A DNA stretch of 61,463 nt, the filler included, from Hausera hauseri (lineage: Eukaryota), in assembly GCA_046269625.1 (NCBI GenBank). It is 11 parts of 11 records of this genome, joined end to end, with 100 filler letters (N's around TTAATTAATTAA, not from the genome) between each part and the next. Parts side by side here need not be neighbours in the genome. Positions count along the whole stretch, not along the records: positions 47,937 to 53,000 come from JBJURY010347490.1; 10 more parts are not named here. One strand, given 5' to 3'. The position numbers were made by a program, and so were the translations under genes. Below the pieces are notes generated by a model. That model was not told where the DNA came from. It searched no databases and saw nothing but the letters and a program-made list of their open reading frames with translations. Below, piece by piece: positions 4,917-61,463 of this stretch. Numbering within the stretch: the stretch's first letter is position 1; each line of letters opens with the position of its first letter.

Positions 4917-6480
4917 TGTTGCTGCATCTTTTTAATATCCAAAATACCTGCAACGCTCAAGGTTTGTAAAAATTTTACCTTTGTCTTTGTCATTTTTGCT
5001 CCCACATGTCTAGTTTGGCATTAAGCACATAGAGCTTCCGCTATCCGAGATACTCCGTCTGCGTTTGTATGTTCACTGCCTCGACGAAACTGCAGCTGAA
5101 AATTGAAGGTGGCCATATCTTTAACCCATGACTGGAATTGTGGACTTAAAGGTTTTGTCGATTGAGTCATGAACACCAAAGCCTTATGATCTGTGCGGGA
5201 TACGAACTGATTCCCATACAAATGATGTTTGAAGTGTAGCATAAACGCCCGTAGTGCGAGAAACTTCTCCTTAGTTACACAGTATCCCTTCTCATGGTCA
5301 TTCAGTGTCCTGGAACCATATGCCACAACACGTTCGGTTCCGTCATCTTGTAATTGACTAAGAACGCCTTCTATAGCTGAAAAACTCGCATTTGTGTCGA
5401 GGATCATGGGTCGGTCCGTGTTTGGAAAACATAAAACTGGAGTCGTTGTCAATTGTTGTTTCAATTCTTTGAAGCTGGCTTGACACTCTTTTGACCAGTG
5501 GAAATTATCTTTAGCTTTCGTGGTTGCATACAGTGGCGCCGCAATCTGAGCAAAATCTTTGATAAACCTTTTATAATAATTTTCTAAGCCTAAGAATGAT
5601 TGTAACTGAGTGACACATCTTGGAGAGGGTGCTTCTCGAATTTTGACAATCTTGTAATTATTGTTTTCTACGCCGTCTCCACTTACCATATGCCCCAGGA
5701 ACTGAACTTTCGATTGTTTCAGATAACATTTTTCTGGTTTAATCTTCATCCCTACTTCAGCAATTTTCTGGAATACTTTCTCTAAACGGAAGTCATGCTC
5801 GATATTCGTCTTTCCGTAAACCAATATATCACCCAGGTATACTATAACCCCTTTATACAGCATTCCCTCAAAACTTATGTGTATCAGTCTTTGAAACGTC
5901 GCAGAAGTCGTGCATAACCCAAACGGCAATCGATTAAAATAGAACTGACCCATCTTTGTGCTAAACGCTGTCTTCACTTGAGGTTTCTGTTAACTCTACC
6001 TGATAGTATGCGTTGCCGAGGTCTATTCTTCAAAAGACTGTCGCACATTGTAAAGCATCCAAGAGTCCATAAATATCCGGAACTGGAAACGTAAACTTCT
6101 TAGTAAGTGCGTTCAACTTCCTAAAGTTCATGCACATGTGAATGGACCCGTCTTTTTAGGTATTACCACAAGTGGTGTATTCCAATGGCTTTGGCATGTC
6201 CTAATTGTGGTGCCAACGGCGGCCAGTGCCCTTTGGCCTATTTGGTCCGGCGCGGCCGGGCGTCCGTTGCCGTCGCGTCGGGCCCATAGTCGGGCCCGAT
6301 TTTCCGCCTCTAAATCGACTGTCAAGAAAAACGCATGTACTATAAGTAATCGTTGTGGTGCCCGAATCGAATGTTTGCCCTCTGGCCCATTCGATTGGGC
6401 ACGGCCGGGTTTTCCGCTGCCGACGCGTCAGGCACATAGGCAGGTCCTGATTTTCTGCCATGAAAATGAAACCCCACACT
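4917..6480 (-). mobile_element. Ty3/Gypsy pol fragment (RT + RNase H), frameshifted
   Basis: WNTPLVVIPKK, then IDLGNAYYQV, KTAF...RLPFGL, YLGDIL (YLDD mutated), FLGH, FLGL.NYY, and RNase H TNAS/TDHKAL/NADGVSR. The main ORF is 5021-5977. Confidence 0.92.
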
Positions 6481-7877: not shown

Positions 7878-9614
7878 TTAAGGAGAATCAAGGATAATCT
7901 GATCGGTCCAAGCAGAAAAATCAGCACTGTCCTTCGGTAGATTACATGCCGCGGCAACCGCGGCCTGTTGGTGAAATGAATTGAGGGGCAAGGTATCCAT
8001 TTGCGGGTCATCGGCGTCAGTTGGTACTAATGGACGATGAAAAGAAGGGTTTATGGGTGGGTTTTCTAATAGGGAGAATTGCGACCAGTCACAGTGGGGT
8101 ATAGAGGTAAGGGGTTTATAGGGTAATTTTGTAGTAAGGGTGGGTAAAAATTGGGGACGCCAGGGAGTAAGTAGATCACTAGAATGGCGTCTTTCTTTGT
8201 ATACATCGTGGGCTATCAGAATCATATACTCAGCATTCATTTTCCCTGGAATATAATACTCAAAGGATTTATACAATCTATTAAAGGGAACGATGCCATT
8301 TTTGGTATGATTAAGATCAATGGCACCCAGTAATACGGTGTACGGCACACGCCAAAGGGTAAGGAAAAAGTGGGGGTCAAAGGTTATTAAAATTCTGCCG
8401 TATAATGCACGGTACACGTGAGCCCTAACAAGTGCAAAATCTGGGGCATAGTCTAGGTCATCCAGGGATACACCGTGACAATGTTTATCTACGTTGTCTA
8501 TCTTTTCCCTGGGTTTTACATACGTTTTATACCTAATATTGAGAGCCTCATCAGGGTCTGTAAGGAGGTCTGCTAGGTAAATTTGAACGATTAAGGGGAG
8601 ATTTCCGGAGAAGGATAGTGTGTATCCAGCGAAAAGAAGGTCCCGAATCATATAGGAATTAGGGATTCGAACATATGAATGTACAAATTGGTGTGGAGGT
8701 TGTGGAAGCCAATCTAATTCATTCAAGGGCAGTCCACTATCAGGGGAGGTATCCAAATATTGTCTCCAGGGCGGGTTGTCAGCATATTCTAACTCAAAAA
8801 ACAATAGAGATGCCTCTCTTATCGAAATAGAGATCGAGTCCGAAGACCAAACATCCGTCTTTAAAATTACGGATCTATAAGAAGATAGATATAATTTAAA
8901 TTTTGGAAGAGGGTTTTTATGAATTTCAATAACTACAGATCCGAGAGCTACGGTCAGTAAAAGGTCTTTAGGCTGTGTGGGAAAGTTCAAAATCGAAAAT
9001 TGCTGTTGTATAAGTTGATATAGGGGATGCGGTCCATAACAATGTAACCAGTGCGATATTAATATACAACGATCTTGCAAACTATTTCCTTTATACCTAT
9101 TAGGGATTGTAAATACAGAGGGGAATTTAGTGATTGTATGACGAAGCGAAGTGTTCATGCGTAAGGACCTATATGTAGAGCGGGAACGCAAGACCTCGCT
9201 GATAAAAGGAATACACGACCGATTTGGTAAATACAGGGGTATAAGAGGCATTTGCTGTAAGGAGGAAAACTGTAATCCTGGTCCTAAATTTCGAATTGGT
9301 GGAGATTGATCTAAGAGGTGAGATATGCCGGGGGGAGATAACACATTAGGGGGTTGAAGTGTTAGGGGTGATTGAATATCCGACGCGGTTATGTCAACGG
9401 ACGCCATTTCGATTTCGATCCGAATAGTAGATTGCATCCAAACCTCAGCATGTGATAAATCTGATTCTCGGGGAAATTGTAATTTTGCATTGTCGCAATC
9501 TGAGATCGGAGTTATTTGATTATTGGTGTTGGTAGAAGTCACTAAAAAATAAAAGTGGGTTTGAGAAGTATACGCCCGCACCTGAAAGTGATAGGTCGTG
9601 GCAATTCTTAATTG
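7878..9614 (-). CDS. Intact orphan ORF (~570 codons) in frame with and 3' of the env-like ORF of a Gypsy element; function unknown
   Basis: Stop-free from 9614 to 7878. Separated from the upstream ORF only by the TGA at 9615-9617. Pro-rich N- and C-termini; no motif recognised. Confidence 0.75.
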   Translation of the reverse strand, partial: QLRIATTYHFQVRAYTSQTHFYFLVTSTNTNNQITPISDCDNAKLQFPRESDLSHAEVWMQSTIRIEIEMASVDITASDIQSPLTLQPPNVLSPPGISHLLDQSPPIRNLGPGLQFSSLQQMPLIPLYLPNRSCIPFISEVLRSRSTYRSLRMNTSLRHTITKFPSVFTIPNRYKGNSLQDRCILISHWLHCYGPHPLYQLIQQQFSILNFPTQPKDLLLTVALGSVVIEIHKNPLPKFKLYLSSYRSVILKTDVWSSDSISISIREASLLFFELEYADNPPWRQYLDTSPDSGLPLNELDWLPQPPHQFVHSYVRIPNSYMIRDLLFAGYTLSFSGNLPLIVQIYLADLLTDPDEALNIRYKTYVKPREKIDNVDKHCHGVSLDDLDYAPDFALVRAHVYRALYGRILITFDPHFFLTLWRVPYTVLLGAIDLNHTKNGIVPFNRLYKSFEYYIPGKMNAEYMILIAHDVYKERRHSSDLLTPWRPQFLPTLTTKLPYKPLTSIPHCDWSQFSLLENPPINPSFHRPLVPTDADDPQMDTLPLNSFHQQAAVAAACNLPKDSADFSAWTDQIILDSP

Positions 9615-11267
9615 TCATAAGATAATACTATAATTATCATTATCGTGTCTGTGGGCCAGTTCATCGGATACAAAGTAGTTCATATTAAAATTAATGTCAT
9701 TTTGTGGGATATTTTCATACTCATTAATATAGGTTGCATAATATATTTCGTTAGATCTTTTAAAATACATGGCGAGGGAGAGACATACTATGATTACTAT
9801 GCCTGAAATACTAATTACAACTACCCATAAATAAAAGAGGGCCAATGAGTTTTGTTTTGATTTTACAAATGCACTAGTTGTTGAGGCAGGTATATTGGAC
9901 AAGAAATAGGAGGCGAACTTTTGTTTCCAATTTGTATAATTTGTTACAAATAATATGGGCTTTTCCAGACGTTTAGACGTTACTAAACGTGTTATATTAC
10001 GTCTGTGTGTTGTTAAATTTGATAAAGATTGATTAGGTGTAAATTTGATTGTTGTAGCTAGGAGATCCATTTTCGTAGGGACTATACGCGAGTTTAACAT
10101 AGCAACTCTTGGTTTTATCCATGGTGATGACCTGGATGCAAATAAATGCTTTAAGTTTAGCGTAGTATTAATTATAATTCGACGTAAGGGATTTACCAAA
10201 ACTGTAAATTGGATCCTGCATACTGAAGGCCGAAAATGGATATCTTCTTTTTTTATTATTGTAAGCTGAGGCGGAGAGGGTCCAACAGACACCAACCAAT
10301 GTTTCCCTACATACATAGCATCCAGTACTGGAGGGCTCCATCGTGTTCGTAAAGCATCAATAGAAAAATAGGGGATTGCTTTCCACAAAAATGATCCTGA
10401 TGTAAATAAGGGTTGAATAGGGGGAATCACCCAATCATATATGAAATATATGTTTGTCTCGGATATTGGCATGGTAATTTTGACCCATGTCGATTTATTA
10501 TAGTATATTGGGAAACGTGGTATATCAAGAAACAATTTTGGGGTAATAGTCCGTTTAGTAAAATTTAATCTAATTTCTTCTATTTGCACTAAAACTCCAG
10601 ACTGGCCTTCAGTCCATAAATATTGATAAGCCAAAAATGGTTCTCTCAAAATTCGGAACGAAGGAGTTCGCAAAAGAGGTGTTTCCCATCTATCGATTAT
10701 TCTCATTGAATCTTGATCAAGTAAGGCGAAAGTTTGCTGCACTGTAGGTTTGTCCACTTGGTAAAAACATGCGCCTCCAGGCGACTCAATTGTACAGAGG
10801 CCAAGAAATTCTATTGACTGGTTGGTCCAAATGTGAAATATTAAAATTTTAACAGTGTTAGTCGTATGAGGAATATTTGTATGCAGATAGGTTATCTGAT
10901 TTTGATGTCTCCATCCCATGTGTATCGCTGGTCGACCTTCATAAGTTCCCAAACAACAAATTAAAGTAAAAATAAATGTTGCGTATGAAATACAATTTCC
11001 AGTTGGGGTAGAGTAGGTTGGTAGAGTAATATCTGTTACTTTTATTTTATCTTTCTTTTCATTTTCCTGTTGTTCTATCTCTGGATTTTTACTTTTCGAT
11101 ATGGGCGGAGAAGTTAATTTGCACCATTCTGCTGCTAGACAAACAATTTCGTTACGTTTACCTACTTTCTTTTTAATAAAAATATTGTTGTCTGTAACTC
11201 GTTCAACCTGATAGGGTCCCTTCCATGGACGAGTTAATTTAGGTGATAAACCTTTTTTTGTTACATG
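9615..11267 (-). CDS. Gypsy integrase C-terminus (GPY/F) fused in frame to an env-like type I membrane glycoprotein (5'-partial)
   Basis: From the contig edge: HVTKKGLSPKLTRPWKGPYQV (integrase GPY module), then a hydrophobic CISYATFIFTLICCLG, 105 codons with no stop before the listed 445-aa ORF. That ORF has 8 N-x-S/T sequons, a C-terminal TM (LALFYLWVVVISISGIVIIVCLSLAMYF) and a 48-aa tail. Confidence 0.8.
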   Translation of the reverse strand, partial: HVTKKGLSPKLTRPWKGPYQVERVTDNNIFIKKKVGKRNEIVCLAAEWCKLTSPPISKSKNPEIEQQENEKKDKIKVTDITLPTYSTPTGNCISYATFIFTLICCLGTYEGRPAIHMGWRHQNQITYLHTNIPHTTNTVKILIFHIWTNQSIEFLGLCTIESPGGACFYQVDKPTVQQTFALLDQDSMRIIDRWETPLLRTPSFRILREPFLAYQYLWTEGQSGVLVQIEEIRLNFTKRTITPKLFLDIPRFPIYYNKSTWVKITMPISETNIYFIYDWVIPPIQPLFTSGSFLWKAIPYFSIDALRTRWSPPVLDAMYVGKHWLVSVGPSPPQLTIIKKEDIHFRPSVCRIQFTVLVNPLRRIIINTTLNLKHLFASRSSPWIKPRVAMLNSRIVPTKMDLLATTIKFTPNQSLSNLTTHRRNITRLVTSKRLEKPILFVTNYTNWKQKFASYFLSNIPASTTSAFVKSKQNSLALFYLWVVVISISGIVIIVCLSLAMYFKRSNEIYYATYINEYENIPQNDINFNMNYFVSDELAHRHDNDNYSIIL

Positions 11268-33777: not shown

Positions 33778-34065
33778 TCACATAATAATTGTATCATCAC
33801 TGTCACTGTCACTGTAAGGTTCTGTACCTGGTAGGAAGTCATGTATGGGTTTTATCAGGAGTCCTACCCATTTTACATACAGGCACTGGTCTGCAGCATA
33901 ATGTACTACCACAAACTCGCACTTTTTCCTGCATAGCGGACACGACATTTTACTCCTTAACCATTTCTCTAGACATCCTATACAGAACGTATGTGTGTCG
34001 CACGTCGCCATTCTCATGGTCTTATCAAGCATATGCTCCCAACAAATAGGACAGGTTTTCGACAT
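33778..34065 (-). CDS. Small RING-finger (C3HC4) protein directly downstream of family B pPolB
   Basis: MSKTCPIC...CDTHTFCIGCLEKWL...CPLCR with an acidic DSDSDD tail. Likely start is the ATG at 34065; frame intact. Confidence 0.8.
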   Translation of the reverse strand: MSKTCPICWEHMLDKTMRMATCDTHTFCIGCLEKWLRSKMSCPLCRKKCEFVVVHYAADQCLYVKWVGLLIKPIHDFLPGTEPYSDSDSDDTIIM

Positions 34066-34288
34066 TTTGAAATAAAGAAAGATTAAGGCAAGTAAATGTC
34101 GCACTGTATTGATTTTTTTATTCAAATTCCAAATTTGTTGATCTTACTTGGTCTTAACCTATATAGTGGTTACTCAGATTTACTTGGCCTTGCCCTACCT
34201 TCCACATTATTTGATCAAATAAGACAACACGATATTTATATACAAGATTTATTGCAACAAAAAATAATAAAAAACAATATGTACATAT

Positions 34289-42042: not shown

Positions 42043-42662
42043 TTACAAATATTCGTTTGCAAAATCACGCATAGCAGCAATCATATGCATTTGACGAGTG
42101 CTTAAATCGTAGAATTGCTCTATAAGAGTCAAAAGCCGTTGTTTTCGTGCAGCCTCCAGCTGTTTAATTTATGTGTTTGGCTGTGTCAATAATGTGGTTG
42201 TTGTTGTTGTTGGTAAAAGTTCCAATAAATCAAATTTTATAATTAACGTATCGTCATTATCCAGGAGAAGTGATTGTAATTTTATTAATGAAATAAATTT
42301 GGGAAGTCCACTTGCAATGTTGCATTCGTCTTGTGGATTCATGTAACATACTGATCGTAAATCCGTTTTCAATTTGTCAGAGCAGATAACCTTGCCCCGA
42401 TTGTTCAGTAACGACATTTGAATCACTGCACGAAACGGCCCATATAACGAATCATCATGTTCACCTTGACAATTGCAAAGAAAACTGATAAATGCGTACG
42501 TCTTCCGATTCCATCGCCGTCCAGACAAACTATAATACAGAAATTGTACTGCTGCAAAAGGAATGAATCACCAGTTACTACTACTGCATCACTACTCGTT
42601 TTCTGATCTGAGGAATTTTCTAATTTCCAAGTGAAGGAGAAACTAGTTGTTACGGTATTCAT
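42043..42662 (-). pseudogene. Intronless solo TRAF-type MATH (TRAF-C) domain gene with a short helical C-terminal extension
   Basis: FTWKL...CLDGDGIGRRTHLSVFFAIVK / GEHDDSLYGPF...LLN...NIASGLPKF...DDTLIIK is the TRAF-C signature. One frameshift at ~42466. An in-frame stop at 42169 is followed by 41 more open codons. Confidence 0.85.
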
Positions 42663-43245: not shown

Positions 43246-44610
43246 AAGATAATTGCACCTCGAGTTAGAATTAAGGATACTTTTCCCGACGTTACTGGCA
43301 TTACTAAACCCCAACTCGAAAAAGGAAAAGATTTTTTGGAAATACAAGAAGATATCAGCCACTGTTTATATGGATACGTTGTTACTGGATTCCGAGTCCA
43401 CGAAGCACTAGAAAGATTAGGAATCAGACAGGAATATCTAGCCGGTATCCGAGAAATAAGCCGAAACCCCACTGTCGTGAGTCAAGTAGAAAACACCTTA
43501 ATGCGGAAAAGAAGATGTCTACTTCCCGTCTCAGCGTCGCCCGAATCGCAATTCAAGATGATGCTCGAAGCCACGAATGGCGAAGGATTCAAATTCCCGA
43601 AATTAATGAAGGCGAGTCAAGGAACCAAATATATTAAGAATGTTTATGACCATTTACGATGGGATCATGAATGGAAACCTAGAGATCCTATACAGAATGC
43701 GATGTCTGATAATAACTCCAAATCACTGATACAGAAATTTCGGAAGGGATTTAGTGAATATCCCGGTTATCGGAAAATAGAAAATCAAGGCACAAAACAA
43801 ATTCGAATAACGATACCAAATAATCCCAAAGGGAACTCGATCAGCCCGTTGGAGCCATCAACTAGTAAGGCTCGAGAAGAGCCAGAATCAAGGTCTGACA
43901 AGATGGATAACCCAAAGGGGCACAAGACAAAAATCTCTTTCCTAGAATACATTTACAAAAAGAGAAGTAAGACCAACAAAAGTCAAATCAATGAAAAAGG
44001 ATCAACAATAGATAACTCAATTTCGGAGGAACCCATAGACAATCAGAAAGGAATATCAAATCGAGAGAAAAGAAAAAGGACAGTGAAAAATCGTTGGAAA
44101 TTACAAGATTCGGGTCCTTTAAGTCAGAAGTCAATGTTCTTAGGAAGAACTGGGAGGAAGATACCCCGATTGTGGTTACAGAATTCGGTAAAGTACAAGA
44201 AAATTCTAATCATGGCTGAATATTACAGCAGAGGAAAAATCAAAGAGGCTGTATTTTATGTGTCCACCGTTCCAAGAAGAATAGTAAGTGGAAACGGATA
44301 TGCCAGAGAAGATCATACCATAGGCAGATACTTAGCCCCAATATTTCAATCAAAAAGTGGCACTAATAGGCTAACAATTCCCGTGGACACCCAAGTCAGA
44401 ATTCAGTTAAAAAGACAATATAAGAAAACTAGAATACCTGATCTGGACAAACAAGAAATAGTAGAATGGACCTTAGTAGCAGTATCTGACGATCCCAGAA
44501 AAAGTTCAGTAGACCCCAAGCAAAAGAGATTATACGGATATTTATATCACGACAGAAAAGGACTTGTGTTTGAAAGAATAGAAGTGGATGAGAATAATTG
44601 TGGACATTGA
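43246..44610 (+). CDS. Intact orphan accessory ORF in the 3' region of an LTR retrotransposon (probably 5'-partial)
   Basis: At least 424 aa, basic, with NLS-like clusters (KKRSK, REKRKR). Lies upstream of the RING ORF, PPT and LTR. No domain recognised. Confidence 0.65.
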   Translation, partial: KIIAPRVRIKDTFPDVTGITKPQLEKGKDFLEIQEDISHCLYGYVVTGFRVHEALERLGIRQEYLAGIREISRNPTVVSQVENTLMRKRRCLLPVSASPESQFKMMLEATNGEGFKFPKLMKASQGTKYIKNVYDHLRWDHEWKPRDPIQNAMSDNNSKSLIQKFRKGFSEYPGYRKIENQGTKQIRITIPNNPKGNSISPLEPSTSKAREEPESRSDKMDNPKGHKTKISFLEYIYKKRSKTNKSQINEKGSTIDNSISEEPIDNQKGISNREKRKRTVKNRWKLQDSGPLSQKSMFLGRTGRKIPRLWLQNSVKYKKILIMAEYYSRGKIKEAVFYVSTVPRRIVSGNGYAREDHTIGRYLAPIFQSKSGTNRLTIPVDTQVRIQLKRQYKKTRIPDLDKQEIVEWTLVAVSDDPRKSSVDPKQKRLYGYLYHDRKGLVFERIEVDENNCGH

Positions 44611-44998
44611 TGCTGCTGAAAAAGAAGAATGTCCTGTTTGCGATGCAAACCTATACCAAGGATTCGTAGTCTTAGATAACAAAGATTGCAGTCACAAGTA
44701 CTGTCGTTATTGCTTAGAAACGTGGACCCTGAAAAATGGGAAGACGACCTGCCCAGTATGTAGAGCCGAAGCCACAAGATTACGGTATTATTCGAACGGA
44801 GAAAATAAGAAGATAGTAGAGATATTTCCTGAAAGACCCAGTACGTCATACAATATTGACTCGCGATCCCCATCGAACGAAATAGATTCGGAAGCGGACT
44901 TACGCGGACGAATGGAACGATTACGTCAAATTCCCGGCACCTCTACTGACGCAATGGGCACATCCGAGAGTGCCGTTCAGGGAGGAGAAATGTCATAA
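44588..44998 (+). CDS. RING-finger (C3HC4) protein encoded at the 3' end of an LTR retrotransposon
   Basis: CPVC...CSHKYCRYCLETW...CPVCR. The ORF overlaps the upstream ORF by 23 nt, reads through the PPT and stops 8 nt inside the LTR. Confidence 0.82.
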   Translation: MRIIVDIDAAEKEECPVCDANLYQGFVVLDNKDCSHKYCRYCLETWTLKNGKTTCPVCRAEATRLRYYSNGENKKIVEIFPERPSTSYNIDSRSPSNEIDSEADLRGRMERLRQIPGTSTDAMGTSESAVQGGEMS

Positions 44999-47936: not shown

Positions 47937-50501
47937 CACGAAAGATAATAAAAGAAATGAGGGAAAACAAGATCATTCGACCAAGCTGTTCCCCCTGGAC
48001 GGCTCCTGTAGTAATGGTTAAGAAGAAGGATGGAATCATGAGATTTTGCATAGATAATCTAGCGTTAAATAAAATACCCGAAACGAATACATACCCATTG
48101 CCAAGAATTGACGAAATGCTAGACAGGCTCCACGGATCGACCATATTCTCAACGGTAGATTTACAGAAAGGCTATTGGCAAGTGGAGGTGAAAGAAGAAG
48201 ATAAACCAAAAACAGCATTTTCAATCGGAGAAGGATTATGGGAATTTAACAGGATGCCATTTGGGATAAACAATGGACCACCAGCATTCCAAATAGGAAC
48301 GGAACTCTTACTGTTAGACGCTCCACACGCCATGGTATATATGGATGATGTAATAATAGCATCATCAAATTTCCAACAACATTTAAAAGATCTGCAAGAT
48401 CTTTTCGATAGGCGTGAAATAATGGGTTTGAAGATAAACCCGAAGAAATGTTCATTTGCTCAAGCGGAAGTAGATTTTCGTGGACATAAAGAAGACAGAC
48501 AAGGCGCAAAGCCTCAAGACAAACTATTGGGGAAAATAAGAGATTTCCCAAAACCAACTACAGTTAAAGAACTACGCCGATTCTTAGGTTTGGCGAATTA
48601 CTATCGGATATTTATAAAGGATTTCAGCAAAATCGCAAAACCCTTATATAAACTATTGCGTGAAGACCTGGATATAGTAATTTGGACTAATGAGTGTCAG
48701 AGAGCGTTTAAATATTTAAAAGAAAGATTGCTAACTGCTCCTATCTTAATTTACTCCGATATGAGCAAGCCATTCATATTAGCCACAGATGCAAGCGATT
48801 ACGGAGTCGGAACAGTGTTGTCACAAAAAGGTGAAGACGGTAAGGAGTACCCAGTAGCTTATGCTTCACGGAAATTTAATAAACACCAAAAGAAATATGC
48901 AGTAATTGCAAAGGAGTTGTTGGCAGTAATATTTGCTCTAGAAGTATTTTCACCGTATATTAATGAGAACAAACCACTGTTGATATATACCAATCATTGA
49001 ACACTACAATGGCTGAAACAGCATGAAAATCCAAACAATTGATTATTACGATGGGCTCTTAAACTGCAACCCTATACATTAAATTTCCAGTATATACCTG
49101 GAACACGAAATGCCAACGCAGACTATTTATCCAAAATGACAAAAGATTCAAAAGTGAAAAAAGAGGAAATAGCAGCAGTCTGGAGCATGGATGGATCAGT
49201 AGAAAAGATCAAACAAAACCAACAGGAAGATCTCGAAATAAAAGTAATTAGAAATTTTATACAGAATAAGGTACTACCAACAAACAAAGAATTAGCCCGA
49301 CATCTAGCTCAATTTAGCGAAGAATATGAAAAAGATGGATTTTTGTATTACATCCACCAGGAGGGACCAGCATTAGTGATTCCAAAGAAGAATAGAACAG
49401 TTCTATTAACGCAATATCACGATGGATTACTCGGTGGACACCAATCAGCAAGGAAGACACTTAATGAGCTAAACGAAAATATTTCTGGCCCACTATGATG
49501 TAGGACGTACAAGAATGGTGTGAAAGTTGTAAATTATGCGCTACCCGGAAAAATACCGGATCAAAATTCAAAGCGCCTTTGAAGGTATGGGACAACCCCC
49601 CAGCACCATTCGAATTTACCGCAATGGATATAACGGGACCACTACTATTAACTCTGAATGGAAACAAATATATTTTAGTCTTCATTGACTATTTTACCAA
49701 ATGGGTTGTTGCCGTACCAATGACTGATATAAAGGCACGTACCATTGCTGAGAAGTTTGTCGAAAATATAGTATTTAATTACGGAGCCCCAAGAATTATT
49801 CCTACCGACCAAGCATCAAATTTAACCGGAACTGTAATGCAATCTATATACGATATATTGAAGATATTGAAGTTACGATCCACACCAGGACACCCAGAAA
49901 ATAACGGATTGGTTGAGAGGTATATTGGAGATCTGAAAGGAAAATTACAAACAGTAGTTAATACTAGACAAGACGATTGGGACGAATATGTTAACGCGTG
50001 TGTGTTCGTTAATCGAACGTCAGTACACAAAGCTACTAAAGAGACACCTTTTTATCTAATGTATTTACGGGTGCAAGATTACCAATTGACCTAGACTTTA
50101 ACGTGAGACCTGTCTCACACTTAATCGAAGTGGAAGATTATAAACAATTTATGCGGGAACACCTCTAATTAGCCTACAAAACGATTCGTGATAACCAGGA
50201 GGACTATAAATCAAAATGTAAAAGATAGTATGATAAGAAGACCAAGCAACCAAAAATTAAGATAGGCGACGAAGTAATGTTGTATACTCCGGCAATTAAA
50301 AAGGGTAAAACGTCTAAGTTGGATAGACCATATAAAGGGTCGTATGAGGTAGAGAAAGTGAATATACCGAACATCTGTTTGAAGAGAAATAATACGTCTG
50401 TGAAGATCCACGTTAACAAATGTAAACCAGCGGCCCGAGAAAGTGAGCTAAGGAAAGGTGAAAAGGAAGTGGTACTAAGTATTACTGAAAAGGTAAAATA
50501 G
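47937..50501 (+). mobile_element. Ty3/Gypsy pol (RT - RNase H - integrase), decayed
   Basis: SPWTAPVVMVKKKDG, DLQKGYWQ, RMPFG, YMDD; RNase H TDASDYG and ELLAV; integrase HHCC (HDGLLGGH...CKLC), D-D-E (MDITG, TDQA, VERY) and GPY-like YKGSYEV. Confidence 0.95.
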
Positions 50502-50519
50502 GAAAGTTCAACCCATAGA

Positions 50520-51916
50520 ATGTATTGGTTAATAGAGAGCCTACTATTAACAATCATCCTTTTACTTCCCCAAGTGGCCGGACAGATGAAAAATCAAGAG
50601 GTCGAACAAGTAAAAATACGGCACGCGATAGCTATAACAGAAGACCTGTTAATGAAGAACTTACAGTATAGAATAACTTATTCGGAAAGAGGTCAGAAGG
50701 TGGTAATCTGGAACATGCCGGGACGGATGCCCCTAAAATATATAATGGGAATATAAATAATACCGTGGCAGCAGGATATCAAAAGAAATTTGAACGAACG
50801 CCACTATAACTGTTTAATCCTCTCAGATACCAACCAAACCCGATGCGTAATACAAAGCTCAGGTGTTCATTATGTGTATCACACTCATAATATAGAGAAG
50901 GAGAGTACTATGCGAGTCAGAAAACAAAGTTCTACAGATCAATAGTAATTCCTATCAGACAACAAATGAACGAATCCCAACTAGATGAAATAATACTCAA
51001 TCAGTTAATAGCAAGACCAATGGGATTTAAAAGTGGAAGAAGTTGTATTGAGATAATAACCATGATACAATTGGACCAAATGGGAAGAATTACAATAAAA
51101 CTAGTGGAAACAGTTACACAGAAGTCAGAGTTTGTAGATTAAACGGTAAACGACAACGCGTGTTCTGTATGGTTACACGAGGAAAAATATATCATGTTCA
51201 TTATCTTTTATTTCGCAGGAGAAATGGTAAATTTGGATATCCATTAGAGCGAAAAGGACCCGTAATGTTTATAAGATATAAAAACCAGAAGGAATATAAT
51301 GATGTATAAGAAAAGATCACAACGCCATTCATGCAGTCCTCGGCTGGAAGGAGGGAAATAACCATTGGTAAAACCATATGCTTCCTATTATCGTGCAAAG
51401 CGATCCATATGGGATAATGTTACTATAGTAACAGCCCCTACCGCACTAATTATTTCTGTCAGACCAGATTTAGATTTCGTAAAAATTAAATTCAATTGCA
51501 AGAAACGAGATGTAAAGGTAACCAAAGGAGTCATAACTCCGGTTGATTTAGTAGTGCCATGTGCAGCTTTAGATCCCAATACTCGATATACGATAATCTT
51601 ACAATTACTAGATGATAGAGATAAGACAACTTCTATAAAAATAGTGTCAGCCATAACTACGGTAAGTCATGAAATAGGCGTATCTGATAAAATCAACATA
51701 GTTAGCAATATGATAACTACTAAACCCGTACGAGCTGTGTATAAATATTCTCGATTACAAATAATATGTATAGGATCACTAACCCCTATAATTTTCATAG
51801 TAATATTGAAAATAGTGGTTAGAATTTTATATTGGCAATGCAAAGAAAGAAGAAGCTGGATCAGAATTTATATGCGTAATCTAACGAACCCGTTAGATAC
51901 GGACAACCCCAGCTAA
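50520..51916 (+). pseudogene. Env-like type I membrane protein of the Gypsy element, in frame with integrase, decayed
   Basis: Signal peptide MYWLIESLLLTIILLLPQVAG begins 18 nt after the integrase TAG in the same frame. C-terminal TM LQIICIGSLTPIIFIVILKIVVRILYW with a basic tail. Internal stops and frameshifts. Confidence 0.7.
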
Positions 51917-53000
51917 CGATTAATGTCAGGGACTGCAATACACGCAACCCTAATTAAACCGATAACACAACAACATCGGATTATCTTGCACTTTGGAGAT
52001 AGTAATAGCATAACCACAACGATTACCTCCATAAGTTGTTTGACAACCGTTGTGTTGGTTGTAAGTATAGTTATAAATGACGTATTGACTCTTATGTTTA
52101 CAGTCTAAGCTGCAACGTTTCACCAGATACAATCTATTAACCGTTCCAAACATTTGTATAGCAACGTAAAGAATCACATAATAAATGCCAGTCCATCCAA
52201 CCAATACTATGTGTCGCACAATGACTATATGATTAGCTTGAACTACCCTCAGACTCAGCAAATCTCTAACAATCTGAAAGGGTATAGCATGGCCAATCGA
52301 TCTCTTGCCATAATGCAAATAACCAAAGCCACGTGATTTCTTTTGATTGATATAATCATTCTACCTTATCGATTGCATTCCATGAATTTATATGGTGTAG
52401 TGGGTGAAATTCAAATAAAAACAACAGATAGGAAAACATCCATCAGAGGAGATTTAATCAATGTCGATCCAGAGAATGGTCTTGCTTTTGACCACTCATT
52501 TCTTAATGACAACCTATTCAAAATTCGCTCTTGCACAAATCACGTGATACTAGCACTGGATATAATCAAGCACAAAAAATTTTACCCGAGCCTTCCAGAA
52601 GGAAGGTGTTTCAACCTCTCGGAACCGGATTACATCAAATATAAGAACATCCGTTTTCGAAGATTGGAAAAAATTACAGATAAAGACATGGTCATAGCAG
52701 CCGTCAATTTGGCCTATGACCAGTGGAATCAGTTTCAACCCATTGAAGCCTCGGTTCTAACCTTGAATGGAGATACTCTACTCTACGGAATCATCACCCC
52801 AAGGTAGCATATCATTAATTTCGATACGCGCATAACAGGCCTCGCAGAGTCTAACATTAACAACCAAATGGATCCAGTGGACTTTTATCGGAGAGTGACC
52901 GAAGCCATAACTGACAAGATTGTTATTGGAGCCGACGTGGTTGAAATGGTTATAAACCCTTTCAAATGTCCAATCTGACGGATTGCTGGAGTATGTGATA
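51917..53000 (+). pseudogene. Downstream orphan reading frame, in frame with the env-like ORF
   Basis: ORFs at 51923, 52154 and 52343 share one frame with 51365-51916 and are broken only by point stops. Confidence 0.6.
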
Positions 53001-56084: not shown

Positions 56085-57230
56085 TATACAGGGTGTTTGA
56101 AAAGTCCCTGTCGATTAGAAAAACCAACAAAAGTACATGATACTAATTTATTTATCAAAGGGATCAACTTGTTTACCATCAGGTGAGCACAAAATGCAAT
56201 TCTGCGCAAAGACCTTTCATGGATTTTCAATAGCATGTCTATCGTCACCTTTAGGAATACAGATTTGATTGATTTCTCCAATAAATCATGCGTTTTTGGG
56301 TAATCTGCGTGGACATGCTGTTTGATATTACCCCTCAGGGCAATATCATAGGAGGTTAAATCCGAGCTGCGTGGTGGCTATTGCGTTGGCCCGAATTTCC
56401 CAACCCATCTGTCTGGGAAGTGGTTGTTGAGAAATTCTCTGGTAGTGAGGGAATTATGCGTAGGCGCTTTATGACTGATATTCCTCTGCCTCAATGCATG
56501 CAGGAATCTATTCTCCAGGAGGTCAGTGTACACTTCCGATGTTATTTGACCATTTACCACAAATGGTCCGATAAGGTCAGAGGCTGACATGGCTGCCCAT
56601 ATCATAATGGATGGTGGATGTTGTTGTACTTGTTTGTTGAAGTGAGGATTTTCTTTGTTCCACCACACGAGATTTGGTGTTCGGGCATCCGCGTACAGCG
56701 CACATTCATCAGAGAAGAAAAAATTTTGATGTGCAAATGGTGATGAATACTTTGTCAGTAGCGCTCCGCAAGCAAGACACCTGTTCTCCTCATAATCACT
56801 GGAGAGATACTGAGAAAATATCGGGCGAAATGGCTTGAATCCCTCTTTGTGAAGATACTTATAAATTGTCTGTGTCAATGCTCCAATACCAGCAGCCAAT
56901 CCACGGATTGATGAGGTTGGTTTTTGAGAAAAGGTGCTCACCGATTTCATCTTCACGTGATGGCCTGCCACTACGCTGCATATCTGCTAGGGAACCACTA
57001 GTGAACAGCTTCTCCTCACAATTTTTGATGACAGATCCACGAGGTGATGAGGCATCAAATCACTCATTGAGTTTCTTTCGAACTTCAGCCACAACTAGTT
57101 TTGATTTGTCACTTTCATGCCACCAACATGATGACAAGAATCGGTATTAACTGTGTAAATGCTGCTATCAGTCATGGAGTGAAATGTTAAATCCATACAG
57201 AAGTAAATTTCATTTAAATGATTGTTCAAA
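56085..57230 (-). mobile_element. Tc1/mariner-superfamily DNA transposon, decayed
   Basis: Transposase motifs FFSDEC, NPH...HPPSIMIWAAMS...IGPF, FPDRWVG, then *PPRSSDLTSYD (WPPRSPDL..D). The second catalytic Asp (QQDGAP) is deleted. TA + CAGGGTGTTTGAAAAGT TIR-like end at ~56085. Confidence 0.88.
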
Positions 57231-57330: not shown

Positions 57331-57624
57331 ACTTTTTTGCCCCTTCCCCTTTCTTTCCCCCGACACCCCATCGACTTCGGTCCTTCACCATTCGATGCGT
57401 CTTCCGCACCCCATCATTTCTATGTGCCACACATGACCGTGCACCACTTTCTTCTAACATCCGCTTTTTTCGTGCACCTCCCCTGCTTCCGCAGTGCACC
57501 GTGCACGGTGTGGTTTTTGGAACCTACGTCGTCGAATTTATCCATTCGTGCGGGTGTGCGCATCAATAACGCATCGGATTGGCTGCATTGGGGGGTGATC
57601 AAAAACCTGCATTTTTATACTACT
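57331..57624 (-). repeat. Maverick TIR end with canonical 5'-AGTAGT terminus
   Basis: Minus strand begins AGTAGTATAAAAATGCAGGTTTTTGATCACCCCC, matching the termini at 21649 and 21873. GTGCA-rich. Confidence 0.7.
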
Positions 57625-57639
57625 GACATTATCTAGAAA

Positions 57640-58195
57640 AAAAAAGTAGTAATGCAGAACAGACTGAAGTGCGAAGTGGCGATTGCCAAAAGTTGTATAA
57701 GAAATTTCGAAACAAATTCAAGTTTGCGAAGAAACCAATAATTGCCAAGAACGACTACTTGCCAGAAATTGGAACAGTATATACCGATCCATCAAGTTAC
57801 AGTGTCGAATCATTCGGAGCGAATCTGCTGCAAGTTATCTTATCCTTGTACGGTTGTTGATCTACGTAATATTGTTATCTGAATAAAGTTTTGATAGTCC
57901 AAAATTGTTGTATTGTTTGAAATCGTTTCCTGAAAACGATTTGAGGTACACTAGATCTTAAAACCGAAGTAACTTGTATAGATAAGTCGAGAGTCATTTA
58001 ATCTGCACAAAACAGCAATCAATACCCGCATATACGAATTTAAAAATCTCAAAATAAGTAAGGTACATTCTGTTTTATCGAGAACGGTAAAACCTTGCCT
58101 GCACGAGGAGTTGAGAAATCGAGGTATTAAAATTATTGTTATAGTCATAAGTTGTATAGGCCCACCGCAACTATAACATTTGATGACCCTAGCAG
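57640..58195 (+). mobile_element. Partial 5' LTR followed by a PBS-like sequence
   Basis: AATAAA at ~57882. Ends ...GGCCCACCGCAACTATAACA (58178), as in the 45739 LTR end, then TT-TGATGACCC (TGGTGACCC-like PBS). Confidence 0.5.
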
Positions 58196-58558
58196 GTCAG
58201 TCTTTGCCTCGCTAGACTTGACTTTGAGAGTTAAATAATTACGCAGGGGCGATCAACGCTATTTACATCAAGTAAATGGAATGTAATCTTGAGAACTTAA
58301 AAGTTTGGAATATAGGAAAACCCTACAAATAAATCAACTTATATTTATATATTTGTTATATAGTGAAAATAAGGTAATCAACAAACGTTCCTTGTCCGAA
58401 TCTAATCTAAATAGCATAGTTCAGAATTCCGAGAAATAAACCTCGTAACGTAAATAAGTTAAATAATGTTAACAATAATATAACAGCACATAATCGAGCA
58501 GTAGCACAAAAACTAGGTATCTTTACATTCGACACTTTGAATTTGCTGACTCTTTGAA

Positions 58559-59230
58559 TCAGCCAAATATCTTGTCCATGTCATCAACAACCTGCTTCAT
58601 ATGTAGTAGATAAGGTTCTCGTACTCTCCCATTCTCAGCGTGCAGAAGTATCTCTTCGGGAGAACAGTATCGTGCATCCTGTAAAGGTCGATCAAAATTG
58701 TAAAGGTGACTCCGGAGACTGTCGAAGGAGTGAAAAAACGAATGAGTTCTGATAAATGGGACATGCCCTAATGTCATGCCGTAATGAAGCACAAGTATTT
58801 ATACTGAAATATAACAACAACAACAGAGACACGCGAAATAAATTATATTGATTCACGAAAACAAAAATGAAGCAAAATAATAATATCTATTTTTGATTAA
58901 ATAAGGTCAATCAACTTTTTCATTACAATACAAAGCAAAGCAGAAAATACAAGTCCAATGAGGAAATTAATCCATCGTTGTTGTTGTTGCCGTTTTCATC
59001 ATATTTCATCTTTTATACGTTGTATGAATAGAGATCTGACAATTAATTTAATATATTCCCGTCGATTAATTATTCTGGTTTCTGCGAAATCACACAAAAA
59101 TTGAACATCAAACACATGTCCAGTCAAAATGTCATCGGTCAATTTTTTAATCTCGCTTTCAATGTACTGTTCCTTGTGATTTTTAGTTGTTGTTGTTGTT
59201 GTTGCTGTTGTAGCGTTTAGAATGATTGTT
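58559..59230 (-). other. Small unknown ORFs divergent from the pPolB gene (possible Maverick accessory genes)
   Basis: A 77-aa ORF at 58559-58792 with a TTTCAG acceptor-like site just upstream, and a second ATG-less open stretch at ~59000-59230 (TTTTTTKNHKEQYIESEIKKLTDDIL...). Confidence 0.3.
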
Positions 59231-59331
59231 TATAGGGGAGTAAGGAGACTTTTTTTTCTCAAGACCGACAAATAAGGTGTCATATTTCAATTTATAGTAT
59301 GTATAACTTAATATAAAACATCTATTTTATT

Positions 59332-61463
59332 TTGTTTTCCATTCATAAGTGTACTAATTATCCCATGAATTGTGTCTCGCGCATACATGTGCAGCAGGAG
59401 CAGTTCCATCAGCAGATGGCTAAAGATTACACCGTTGGCACGGACTCATTTTTGTGTCCAAGGTGCGGTAGTATTTCAGCCCTTTGTCTATACCCCGACT
59501 TTTATGCGATGCGCAAGCACCACATTGGCCCATTTACGCGTGCAAAGAAGATGGTGATTGTGCATTGCCCCACATACCCGCGATACTGTAGTAGTAGAGT
59601 GCATGACGTTAATGGTTGCTACAATGTAATGGAGCACTACTATGGCGCCACAACGGTGCACGGTAAACGGGCCTACATTTGTCCCGGTTGTTTGATAGTT
59701 AATGAAATTAACTAGGAACAATTTTATAACCAGCACAAGGAACACTTGAACCAGTTTCAGCGGTCAAAAAAGGAAGTAGCGATGGCGACAAGAAATACCA
59801 GTATCCCGTCAACAAGCAGGAAACGTCAGTACTCACGAAGTCTTGACGAATACGTCCGAAATAGTACCGAACAGCAGCAGCAGATGCAACATCAGGAACC
59901 TTCCATTACTGTCAAGTACGATCTAAACAAATCGTACGTGGACATGAAAGTAAACATGTCGGAACCACAACACTACAGCTGAGACATATTCCGTCCGGTG
60001 TGCGCATCCGGTTGGAATTAGAGGTGGAGAAATTCCAACACCAACACCGCAAAGTGCAATATTATGCACTTACAGAGTTTGATAACTTTGAAGGTGACAG
60101 GAAATAATGGTACCTGTCACATCGAACTGTACCATATTCGGAAGATTTTATTGCCGATGTAGGCGAAAAGTTAGATGAGAAAATCGCCAACTATACCGAA
60201 AAGGGTAGTGGATGGCGAATTATACGAATTGTCACCCTCGGCTTTATCATAACAAAGTCGAATGATATTATATATTTGTCTGGACGATCATTCATACCGA
60301 CATCTGCAGCTCTGAAGCAGTTTCTGGCGGTAGTGAATGTAAAAAATACTAAAGATGAATACTGTTTTCTTTACAGTATTCTGCCGGTATTGAAATATGG
60401 ACAGACATAGTGCATCTCGTTCAAAATTGTATCAGAAATATTTTCCCGAATTGGATTTCGATGAAAGCTGGATTCGGATGAAACTGAAATCCATCCCGAC
60501 ATTTGAATGCCGTAATCCTTATCTGGAAATCAGCATTTTCCTGTACAACACAATCGTAGAAATACCAGCAGACGAAGAGATGCACAAAAGCCCACACGTG
60601 GATATAATTTATCGCAGTCGGAACCCGAATGGACGCTCGGTAAATTTGCTGATGTTGGAGCAAGCAGATAAATTTCACTACGTGACCGTAACCACATTGG
60701 ACCGACTGCTAAATATGGATCACCACTTATTCATCAAAAGCGCATAAATTGTAAATTGTGCCCTACATATCTGCATGGTTTCAGGTCAAAAACGACATTG
60801 GAAAAGCATGTGGCACTGTGCAGACAAAATTCATCAGGGACAACAATGTACATTATGGCAGTCAAAAAGGACTGACATTTAGTGACTGGTCGAAAATAGA
60901 CAGTCCGGCATATGTGGTATATGCCGATATTGAGGCAGTCCTACCGCAGCACAAATTATACGACCAGAAGCACATTCCAATCGCCGACGGTATGTTCAAT
61001 AAAAGCCGCCGGGCAACAGCAACATTACGTTTTTATGGCTGGAACTGTATACGCGATTTCCTGCAACATTCAGAAACCATTGTGGACACGCAAATCGCAC
61101 CGTGGTACAGTAACAATAGCACTAAACCCTTGATATTGACAGACAAATATGAACCGTTGCTATTCGCTGCCACCGATGAATGTTACATCTGAAACAAAAT
61201 ATTACCTTTTGATGCACAGGAACGGCTCGTACTGGACCAAGATCATTTCACCGGTCGATACCTGGGATCGGCATGTAATTCATGCAATTTAACAAGGCGT
61301 ATGTGACCATTCCTACCGGTGATCTTTCATAAATTCGGAGGTTATGATTGTCACCATATACTGAAATTGGCCATCAACGGATTTCCGCACTGGGAACTAT
61401 CCATAATTCCGACTACGATGGAGAAATACCTGTCACTGTCTGCTCGTATAAACCGGTTCCAGG
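59332..61463 (+). pseudogene. Maverick/Polinton pPolB, family A, N-terminal half, decayed
   Basis: FLCPRC...HH and YICPGC...FY..H N-terminal repeats, KGSGW, NVKNTKDEYCF, YADIE, QDHFTGRYLGSACNSCN. Runs off the window end. Confidence 0.9.

Follow-up and report, generated by a model that had tools for sequence, protein, structure and literature searches.

Introduction

Among the retroelements described so far, those closest to the one considered here are the errantiviruses and the rotifer elements Juno and Vesta. The former are Env-carrying Ty3/Gypsy elements, with an ENV of the F type or of the HSV/gB type, which have past pol an open reading frame (ORF) for a signal peptide, an ectodomain and a transmembrane (TM) segment, as is predicted here (PMC13524379, in the main text of which the words readthrough and fibronectin both occur 0 times). 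The latter are long terminal repeat (LTR) retrotransposons of bdelloid rotifers with, downstream of pol and again as here, an ORF that resembles exonucleases of the DEDD superfamily (PMC5408684), and DnaQ-like domains are known as accessory domains of LTR elements (PMC6338049). Our own element belongs to a window (the whole stretch of DNA that was analysed) of 61,463 nucleotides from Hausera hauseri, assembly GCA_046269625.1, which is made of 11 unrelated contigs separated by the joiner N44-TTAATTAATTAA-N44, ORFs that span joiners being artefacts. The element under study is contig 9 (47937-53000), which we compare with contig 2 (4917-11267, minus strand). We propose, with a probability of about 0.5, that the ORF behind pol in this Ty3/Gypsy element (ORF3) would encode a type I membrane protein, and that readthrough of an in-frame stop would append to it a pseudo-nuclease extension.

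The pol-env junction of SIRE1 is, if we go by the title of a paper, reportedly crossed by readthrough. An in-frame stop between coding regions, as in the present case, is found there and in the gag-pol regions of MuLV and Tca2 (PMC2194720); readthrough is described for MuLV in that source, where Tca2 also provides a warning, since its downstream expression is largely independent of gag translation. In Luteoviridae, benyviruses, furoviruses and pomoviruses, a structural protein is made both short and C-terminally extended via contexts of the CAR-YYA or CGG type (PMC2754532, PMC3159437). The type I context is UAG-CAR-YYA; that of type II is either UGA-CGG/CUA or else xxA-stop-CGx-xxx-xxG, in most cases accompanied by a 3' stem. 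CAA-UUA placed past UGA raises readthrough in cells (PMC3159437), and the context of tobacco mosaic virus functions with UGA and UAA too (PMC2754532).

A stop codon apparently kept behind the predicted membrane anchor

Contig 9 belongs to a multicopy Ty3/Gypsy family, of which it is a decayed member. Other copies of the family were drawn from two public runs, X1 and X2, which carry two organism labels and come from two studies; the better-matching run shares 0.34 of words and is possibly related to the source of the window. When contigs of these runs were compared to contig 9 at a likeness of at least 80%, 13408 of them matched in X1 and 1593 in X2, with 30/30 bins covered, figures which concern copy number. 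All results on variants in these copies come from the best 40 of 1642 variant rows.

The sequence-only reading of this DNA had noted TAA CGA TTA ATG (51914-51925) past the TM helix and a tail of 26 residues, which is what translation gives. It had also cautioned that, in a copy so rich in nonsense mutations, any single stop may be decay, and had asked whether other copies have a stop at this place. They do: codon 51914-51916 is TGA in X1, at a depth of 3016.8/3026.4 (48 contigs), and in X2, at 62.9/62.9 (9 contigs). The variant rows touch 4 of the 16 in-frame stops of contig 9, and the three others among these, at 50166, 52106 and 52805, are private to this copy and are not stops elsewhere, so that for 51914 the caution is largely answered. 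This stop is more than decay, being kept as a stop in the rows on other copies. There is no row at bases 1 and 3 of the codon, nor in the hexamer that follows, yet a weaker row 53 bases off is present, which argues that these bases hold no fixed differences. A stop kept among copies, with an open frame on both sides, makes this a candidate site for readthrough.

The hexamer CGATTA, as had been remarked, is one base away from the CAATTA found at the corresponding stop of contig 2, and at least 5/6 bases are common in 0.74% of random stop-context pairs. Exact CARYYA follows 22 of the 6532 stop triplets in the window, and 205 of them are followed by it with at most one mismatch. CGA-TTA is itself one base from CARYYA and one base from CGG, and it matches stop-CGx-xxx-xxG without the 5' A; an Rfam search of contig 9 gave no match. 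The contexts appear to be type II-like in the contig 9 family (TGA-CGA) and of type I in contig 2 (TGA-CAA-TTA). In the latter, the first 59 codons behind the stop contain no ATG, a point against simple reinitiation. Because of these contexts and of the 59 ATG-free codons, we favour readthrough, which we hold to be somewhat more likely than not.

A sister element with the same layout

The layout is common to two distant families. Contig 2 has 1128 open codons (550 + 578) interrupted solely by TGA-CAATTA, and the same layout in so distant an element makes it likely that a rare long form would be produced by readthrough. The integrase tails of contigs 9 and 2 are identical at 26/64 positions, with a score of 90 vs 29.8 +/- 5.6 for shuffles (0/500), one control Gypsy scoring 46 and 33 against these tails; contig 2 retains about 80 residues of this part of integrase.

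The layout had been described as repeated from integrase onwards. This holds, with the difference that integrase and leader are fused in one frame in contig 2. There, neither a stop nor an ATG separates the integrase tail from the ORF3 leader (10938-11267, minus strand), where contig 9 has TAG and then ATG, and the two families may express ORF3 differently. The two hexamers, held to be at equivalent positions, are so only roughly, since the tails that precede them are of different lengths. The remark that the proteins are not obviously alignable stands for the ectodomains as for the 3' ORFs. As for an architecture common to the lineage, the integrase tails are alike and both 3' ORFs are DEDDh-like, but two families only are concerned; a comparison by profiles, proposed at the same time, finds each 3' ORF weakly matching DEDDh exonucleases in one register, but direct alignment does not reach significance. 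The 3' ORFs of the two elements are, in view of these weak matches, probably related.

Relatives with this layout were sought in viral contigs and metagenomes, and none was found in these. A locus scan gave 2 generic Gypsy loci at 40-41% identity in reverse transcriptase (RT), and one of them, L001, shows nothing of this kind behind integrase over the length covered. A separate and heavily decayed Gypsy RT-RNase H lies at 5021-6200 (minus strand), about 1.7 kb downstream of the contig 2 3' ORF and in the same orientation, with no LTR between. Considered as the RT of the sister element, it was rejected: with 97/242 residues identical to the contig 9 RT, vs 151/346 for the control L001, it is no closer than L001, and its decay goes well beyond that of the intact ORFs next to it.

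The reading frame behind the stop

Past the stop of contig 9 the same frame was said to go on for about 1 kb with point stops only, and this is indeed what is found: 361 codons hold 4 stops, as compared with a shuffle mean of 23 (4 or fewer in 0/5000 base shuffles) and with 11-34 in the other five frames. Codons 45-63 make up a hydrophobic stretch (KD19 2.38) that has no counterpart in contig 2. The whole ORF matches ISG20L2 (7yw5) at E 0.013, and its last 122 residues do so at E 0.0021, as the best of 3 matches, the other two being unrelated (E about 0.7). The contig 2 3' ORF matches NCBIfam NF004719 (E 0.0044 whole, 0.00065 on the region), and its NCBIfam matches are all of the DnaQ/DEDDh type (5/5 for the whole ORF, 8/8 on the region); it also matches phrog_192, the polymerase exonuclease subunit of PHROG (E 0.029), and Atlas clusters of DEDDh_C/RNase_T, at 0.85-0.87, which are leads only. 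The DEDDh matches of the two ORFs were obtained separately, in different libraries, and fall in one register. With a joint two-sequence profile 3/3 matches are DEDD-type (ISG20L2 E 7e-4, ISG20 0.14, PolC 0.35), but they depend on the contig 9 match to ISG20L2 and are not independent of it. Among the weak matches of a tblastn against phages, 2/4 are DnaQ-like for contig 2 and 0/3 for contig 9. Taken together, the assignment as exonuclease-like is weak but consistent.

Neither ORF has D or E in the strand where Exo I (DxE) is expected, with the register set by eye, and in both the column of the Exo II Asp is occupied by hydrophobic residues. Without these acids, both would likely be pseudo-nucleases. 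The 3' domain would be a DEDDh nuclease fold, likely inactive, from which catalysis would have been lost. No homologue of the contig 9 3' ORF or of the contig 2 3' ORF was found in protein or contig collections (in the case of contig 2, among proteins of near length and among 1.84 billion representatives), nor was there one for the ectodomain plus 3' ORF against shorter proteins, and an Atlas search with a middle piece of 156 residues gave no usable match.

The predicted membrane protein

The signal peptide and the topology of the ORF3 product are predicted from translation and hydrophobicity. Both ectodomains span about 370-390 residues and are cysteine-poor (3 Cys in contig 2). Likeness to the F or HSV gB fusogens was looked for, and neither ectodomain, be it of contig 9 or of contig 2, has a Pfam or PDB sequence match. 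The single-sequence AlphaFold2 models, with pLDDT 30.8 and 33.3 (the latter for the ectodomain), are too low for use.

A furin-like RAKR motif is present near 51392 in the contig 9 ectodomain. Directly past it, the membrane-proximal part of the ectodomain (51404-51673) has a strand pattern that is FN3-like, by eye only. No tool gave support when FN3 above cut-off was sought by profile search for the contig 9 candidates, and an alignment of three FN3-like candidates did not convince. In contig 2 a weak fn3 match (9641-9561) straddles the stop; it is sub-threshold (Pfam fn3 E 0.022, 15.4 bits vs a cut-off of 25).

Coding regions and decay of the contig 9 element

Contig 9 begins within RT and ends within the 3' ORF, and shows the order RT, RNase H, integrase of Ty3/Gypsy pol (Pfam RVT_1, RT_RNaseH, rve). 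Frameshifts are seen near 49470, 50070 and 50890-50940, and no LTR-like or long direct repeat was found in contigs 2 and 9. The ATG at 50520 had been placed in frame with integrase across one TAG; this applies to the C-terminal part of integrase, but the core is in another frame because of the frameshift near 50070. Continuity of the frame up to the stop behind the TM helix did not hold: the frameshift in integrase is followed by that of the ectodomain, which has 6 point stops besides. Coordinates of the features are collected in Table 1.

Table 1. Features of the contig 9 element and of its sister element in contig 2, in positions of the window.
Feature	Position	Strand	Basis
Contig 9: Ty3/Gypsy pol, RT + RNase H + linker; 5' end cut by contig start; premature stops	47939..49480	+	Pfam RVT_1 E 1.3e-27, RT_RNaseH_2 E 2.3e-35
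Integrase core + C-terminal domain; frameshift near 50070, two point stops	49504..50498	+	Pfam rve E 2.1e-10; translation
TAG closing pol in this copy	50499..50501	+	translation
ATG + predicted signal peptide	50520..50582	+	hydrophobic leader KD19 1.83; cleavage by eye
Predicted ectodomain, about 390 codons; one frameshift, 6 point stops	50583..51760	+	translation; without family match
Predicted TM helix	51761..51835	+	KD19 2.63
Cytoplasmic tail of short form, 26 residues	51836..51913	+	translation
Stop + 3' context TAA CGA TTA ATG, TGA in other copies; candidate readthrough site	51914..51925	+	translation, variant rows, 3' structure
Continuation of the ORF3 frame behind the stop (3' ORF): 361 codons with 4 point stops, truncated by the contig end	51917..53000	+	translation, shuffles
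DEDDh/ISG20-like domain; Exo I + Exo II acids absent by eye register; Exo III past contig end	52685..53000	+	ISG20L2 7yw5 E 0.0021
Contig 2: one stop-free frame of 550 codons for integrase tail, leader, ectodomain, predicted TM (about 9842-9765) and tail of about 49 residues	9618..11267	-	translation, hydropathy
Stop + context TGA CAA TTA, exact CARYYA	9609..9617	-	translation
Intact 3' ORF of 578 codons, codon 60 being its first ATG, with a DEDDh-like domain at about 8579-8367	7878..9614	-	NCBIfam, PHROG, Atlas

Proposed readthrough and its alternatives

A leaky stop past the membrane anchor would yield a minor long form next to a major short membrane protein, and readthrough would fix a low long:short ratio, as between the two forms of the coat protein in Luteoviridae. 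The long form would be extended on its cytoplasmic side, up to a DEDDh nuclease fold that is likely inactive. Maelstrom and EXD1 are inactive DEDD derivatives that retain RNA binding (PMC5408684) and, by analogy, the long form might be a membrane-anchored RNA-binding adaptor, which would keep the RNA or the particle of the element at the membrane, the site of short-form accumulation, and would help exit or cell-to-cell passage. Such an RNA-tethering function is the weakest step of the proposal, and we put it forward tentatively, with more doubt than confidence.

Several points weigh against the proposal as a whole. Its evidence is of one kind, that of sequence. In other copies, the first and third bases of the stop codon, and the hexamer, are inferred from there being no rows for them among the best 40 of 1642; the CGA of contig 9 differs from the canonical CGG/CUA; and the support from 3' structure is weak, since structure is weak past the contig 9 stop (z -2.08, as good in 8/200 shuffles) and absent past that of contig 2 (z +0.47). 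The tails before the two stops are unequal, with 26 vs about 49 residues. The ectodomains do not align, 935/1000 and 426/1000 shuffles scoring as well, and direct alignment of the 3' ORFs is not significant, 475/1000 shuffles being as good for the whole ORFs and 43/1000 for a region chosen afterwards. Every exonuclease match is far below curated cut-offs, the contig 9 3' ORF piece has no match in NCBIfam, and the 3' ORFs have none to Pfam RNase_T. The register of Exo I was set by eye, MAFFT having misaligned Exo I, and Exo III in contig 2 is ambiguous, with two registers of which the one given by MAFFT keeps H and an acid. Finally, an in-frame ATG (51923) is found 6 nucleotides past the contig 9 stop.

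This ATG, two codons past the stop, introduces the main rival explanation, according to which the stop is an ordinary terminator and the 3' ORF a fourth gene in its own right. Its translation would start at its own ATG, either through reinitiation or on an RNA that is spliced or subgenomic. The hydrophobic stretch of codons 45-63, with its KD19 of 2.38, could serve such a gene as an anchor, and the DEDDy ORF3s of rotifers do stand alone (PMC5408684). Contig 2, however, has 59 open codons ahead of its first ATG and no matching hydrophobic stretch, its stop is straddled by the weak fn3 match and is set in an exact CARYYA context, and a fourth gene would require no shared frame, and no leaky context either, let alone in two distant families; we hold it to be unlikely.

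It may also be imagined that readthrough is kept and that the extension acts in counter-defence, either as a decoy or, in intact copies, as an active nuclease, directed against host small RNAs or RNA sensors. ERI-1 and arenavirus NP are precedents of DEDDh proteins in counter-silencing. The likeness to ISG20/ISG20L2 goes in this direction, as do the silencing-related roles discussed for DEDD ORFs of retroelements (PMC5408684), and the catalytic residues of other copies of the contig 9 family lie outside the best 40 of 1642 variant rows. Against this, the intact contig 2 ORF is likewise without the acids of Exo I and II in the register set by eye, and counter-defence has no need of membrane anchoring, so that we regard this role as distinctly improbable. 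Least probable of all is that the stop arose by nonsense mutation and became fixed early on in both families, within a gene that was once continuous, or that the extensions are independent captures alike in layout by chance: the stop-to-TM distance does differ, the contig 2 stop seems to break a domain (the weak fn3) and neither 3' ORFs nor ectodomains align significantly, but the stop is near-completely common to copies under two organism labels in the best 40 of 1642 rows, contig 2 is intact over 1128 codons with its sole stop in an exact CARYYA (0.34% by chance), the matches of both extensions agree in superfamily and register, and the integrase tails resemble each other.

Other elements in the window

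The regions 11368-43145 and 57331-61463 contain six contigs with decayed genes, 70-78% identical in nucleotides among themselves, which look like elements of the Polinton/adintovirus type. Two ORFs were scanned in these six contigs; both match PF03175, the protein-primed DNA polymerase B, and one of the two matches Endonuclease VII in addition. A RING gene is present at 33778-34143, and a MATH/TRAF fragment at 42169-42567 (minus strand, E 1e-9) adjoins a polymerase-bearing element. The DNA is AT-rich and, with these polymerase-B, RING and MATH remnants, suggests the genome of an animal. In 43246-44998 an open frame of 454 codons without a Pfam match, possibly a viral remnant, overlaps with a RING-finger ORF downstream of it at 44582-44998 (zf-RING_2 E 2e-8). 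The stretch 56378-56986 (minus strand) is, by eye, similar to a remnant of a Tc1/mariner-type transposase, with no Pfam match at E 0.01.

Comparison with known systems

Animal Gypsy env-like genes have been classed as F and gB (PMC13524379), and a conserved leaky stop behind the membrane anchor, by which an unclassified ectodomain would be linked to a nuclease-like fold, would add a new type of ORF3 and a new use of recoding. The exonuclease cargo of LTR elements, the function of which is left open by PMC5408684, would be given a testable role. The intact ORFs of contig 2 allow testing that does not involve the decayed copy of contig 9. In the full-text literature searched, which leaves most subscription papers and Repbase/Dfam outside its scope, no description of a TM-stop-exonuclease ORF3 was found, its parts being known separately. 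That we are dealing with an undescribed animal Ty3/Gypsy lineage, in which a surface protein that is neither F nor gB (and has possibly captured FN3-like domains) would be joined by programmed UGA readthrough to a cytoplasmic pseudo-nuclease, is a conjecture to which we give limited credence. In that case the product would be a membrane-anchored, RNA-binding adaptor linking the RNA of the element to the cell surface, envelopes would come in a third class, and recoding would occur at a place new for retroelements.

In relation to the errantiviruses, contig 9 is alike in its furin-like RAKR, and differs in that an F/gB sequence match is absent and in that a long in-frame extension lies behind the stop. 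The ORF3 of Juno and Vesta is stand-alone and DEDDy/RNase D-like, with catalytic residues intact and without TM domains (PMC5408684), whereas the domain found in contigs 9 and 2 is DEDDh/ISG20-like, apparently inactive, and placed behind a signal peptide-ectodomain-TM protein and an in-frame stop. The stops of MuLV, Tca2 and SIRE1 stand at gag/pol or pol/env (PMC2194720), whereas that of contigs 9 and 2 is inside ORF3, past the TM helix. Finally, the coat proteins of the plant RNA viruses are soluble, whereas here a retrotransposon protein, predicted to sit in the membrane, would be the one extended, and the extension is nuclease-like.

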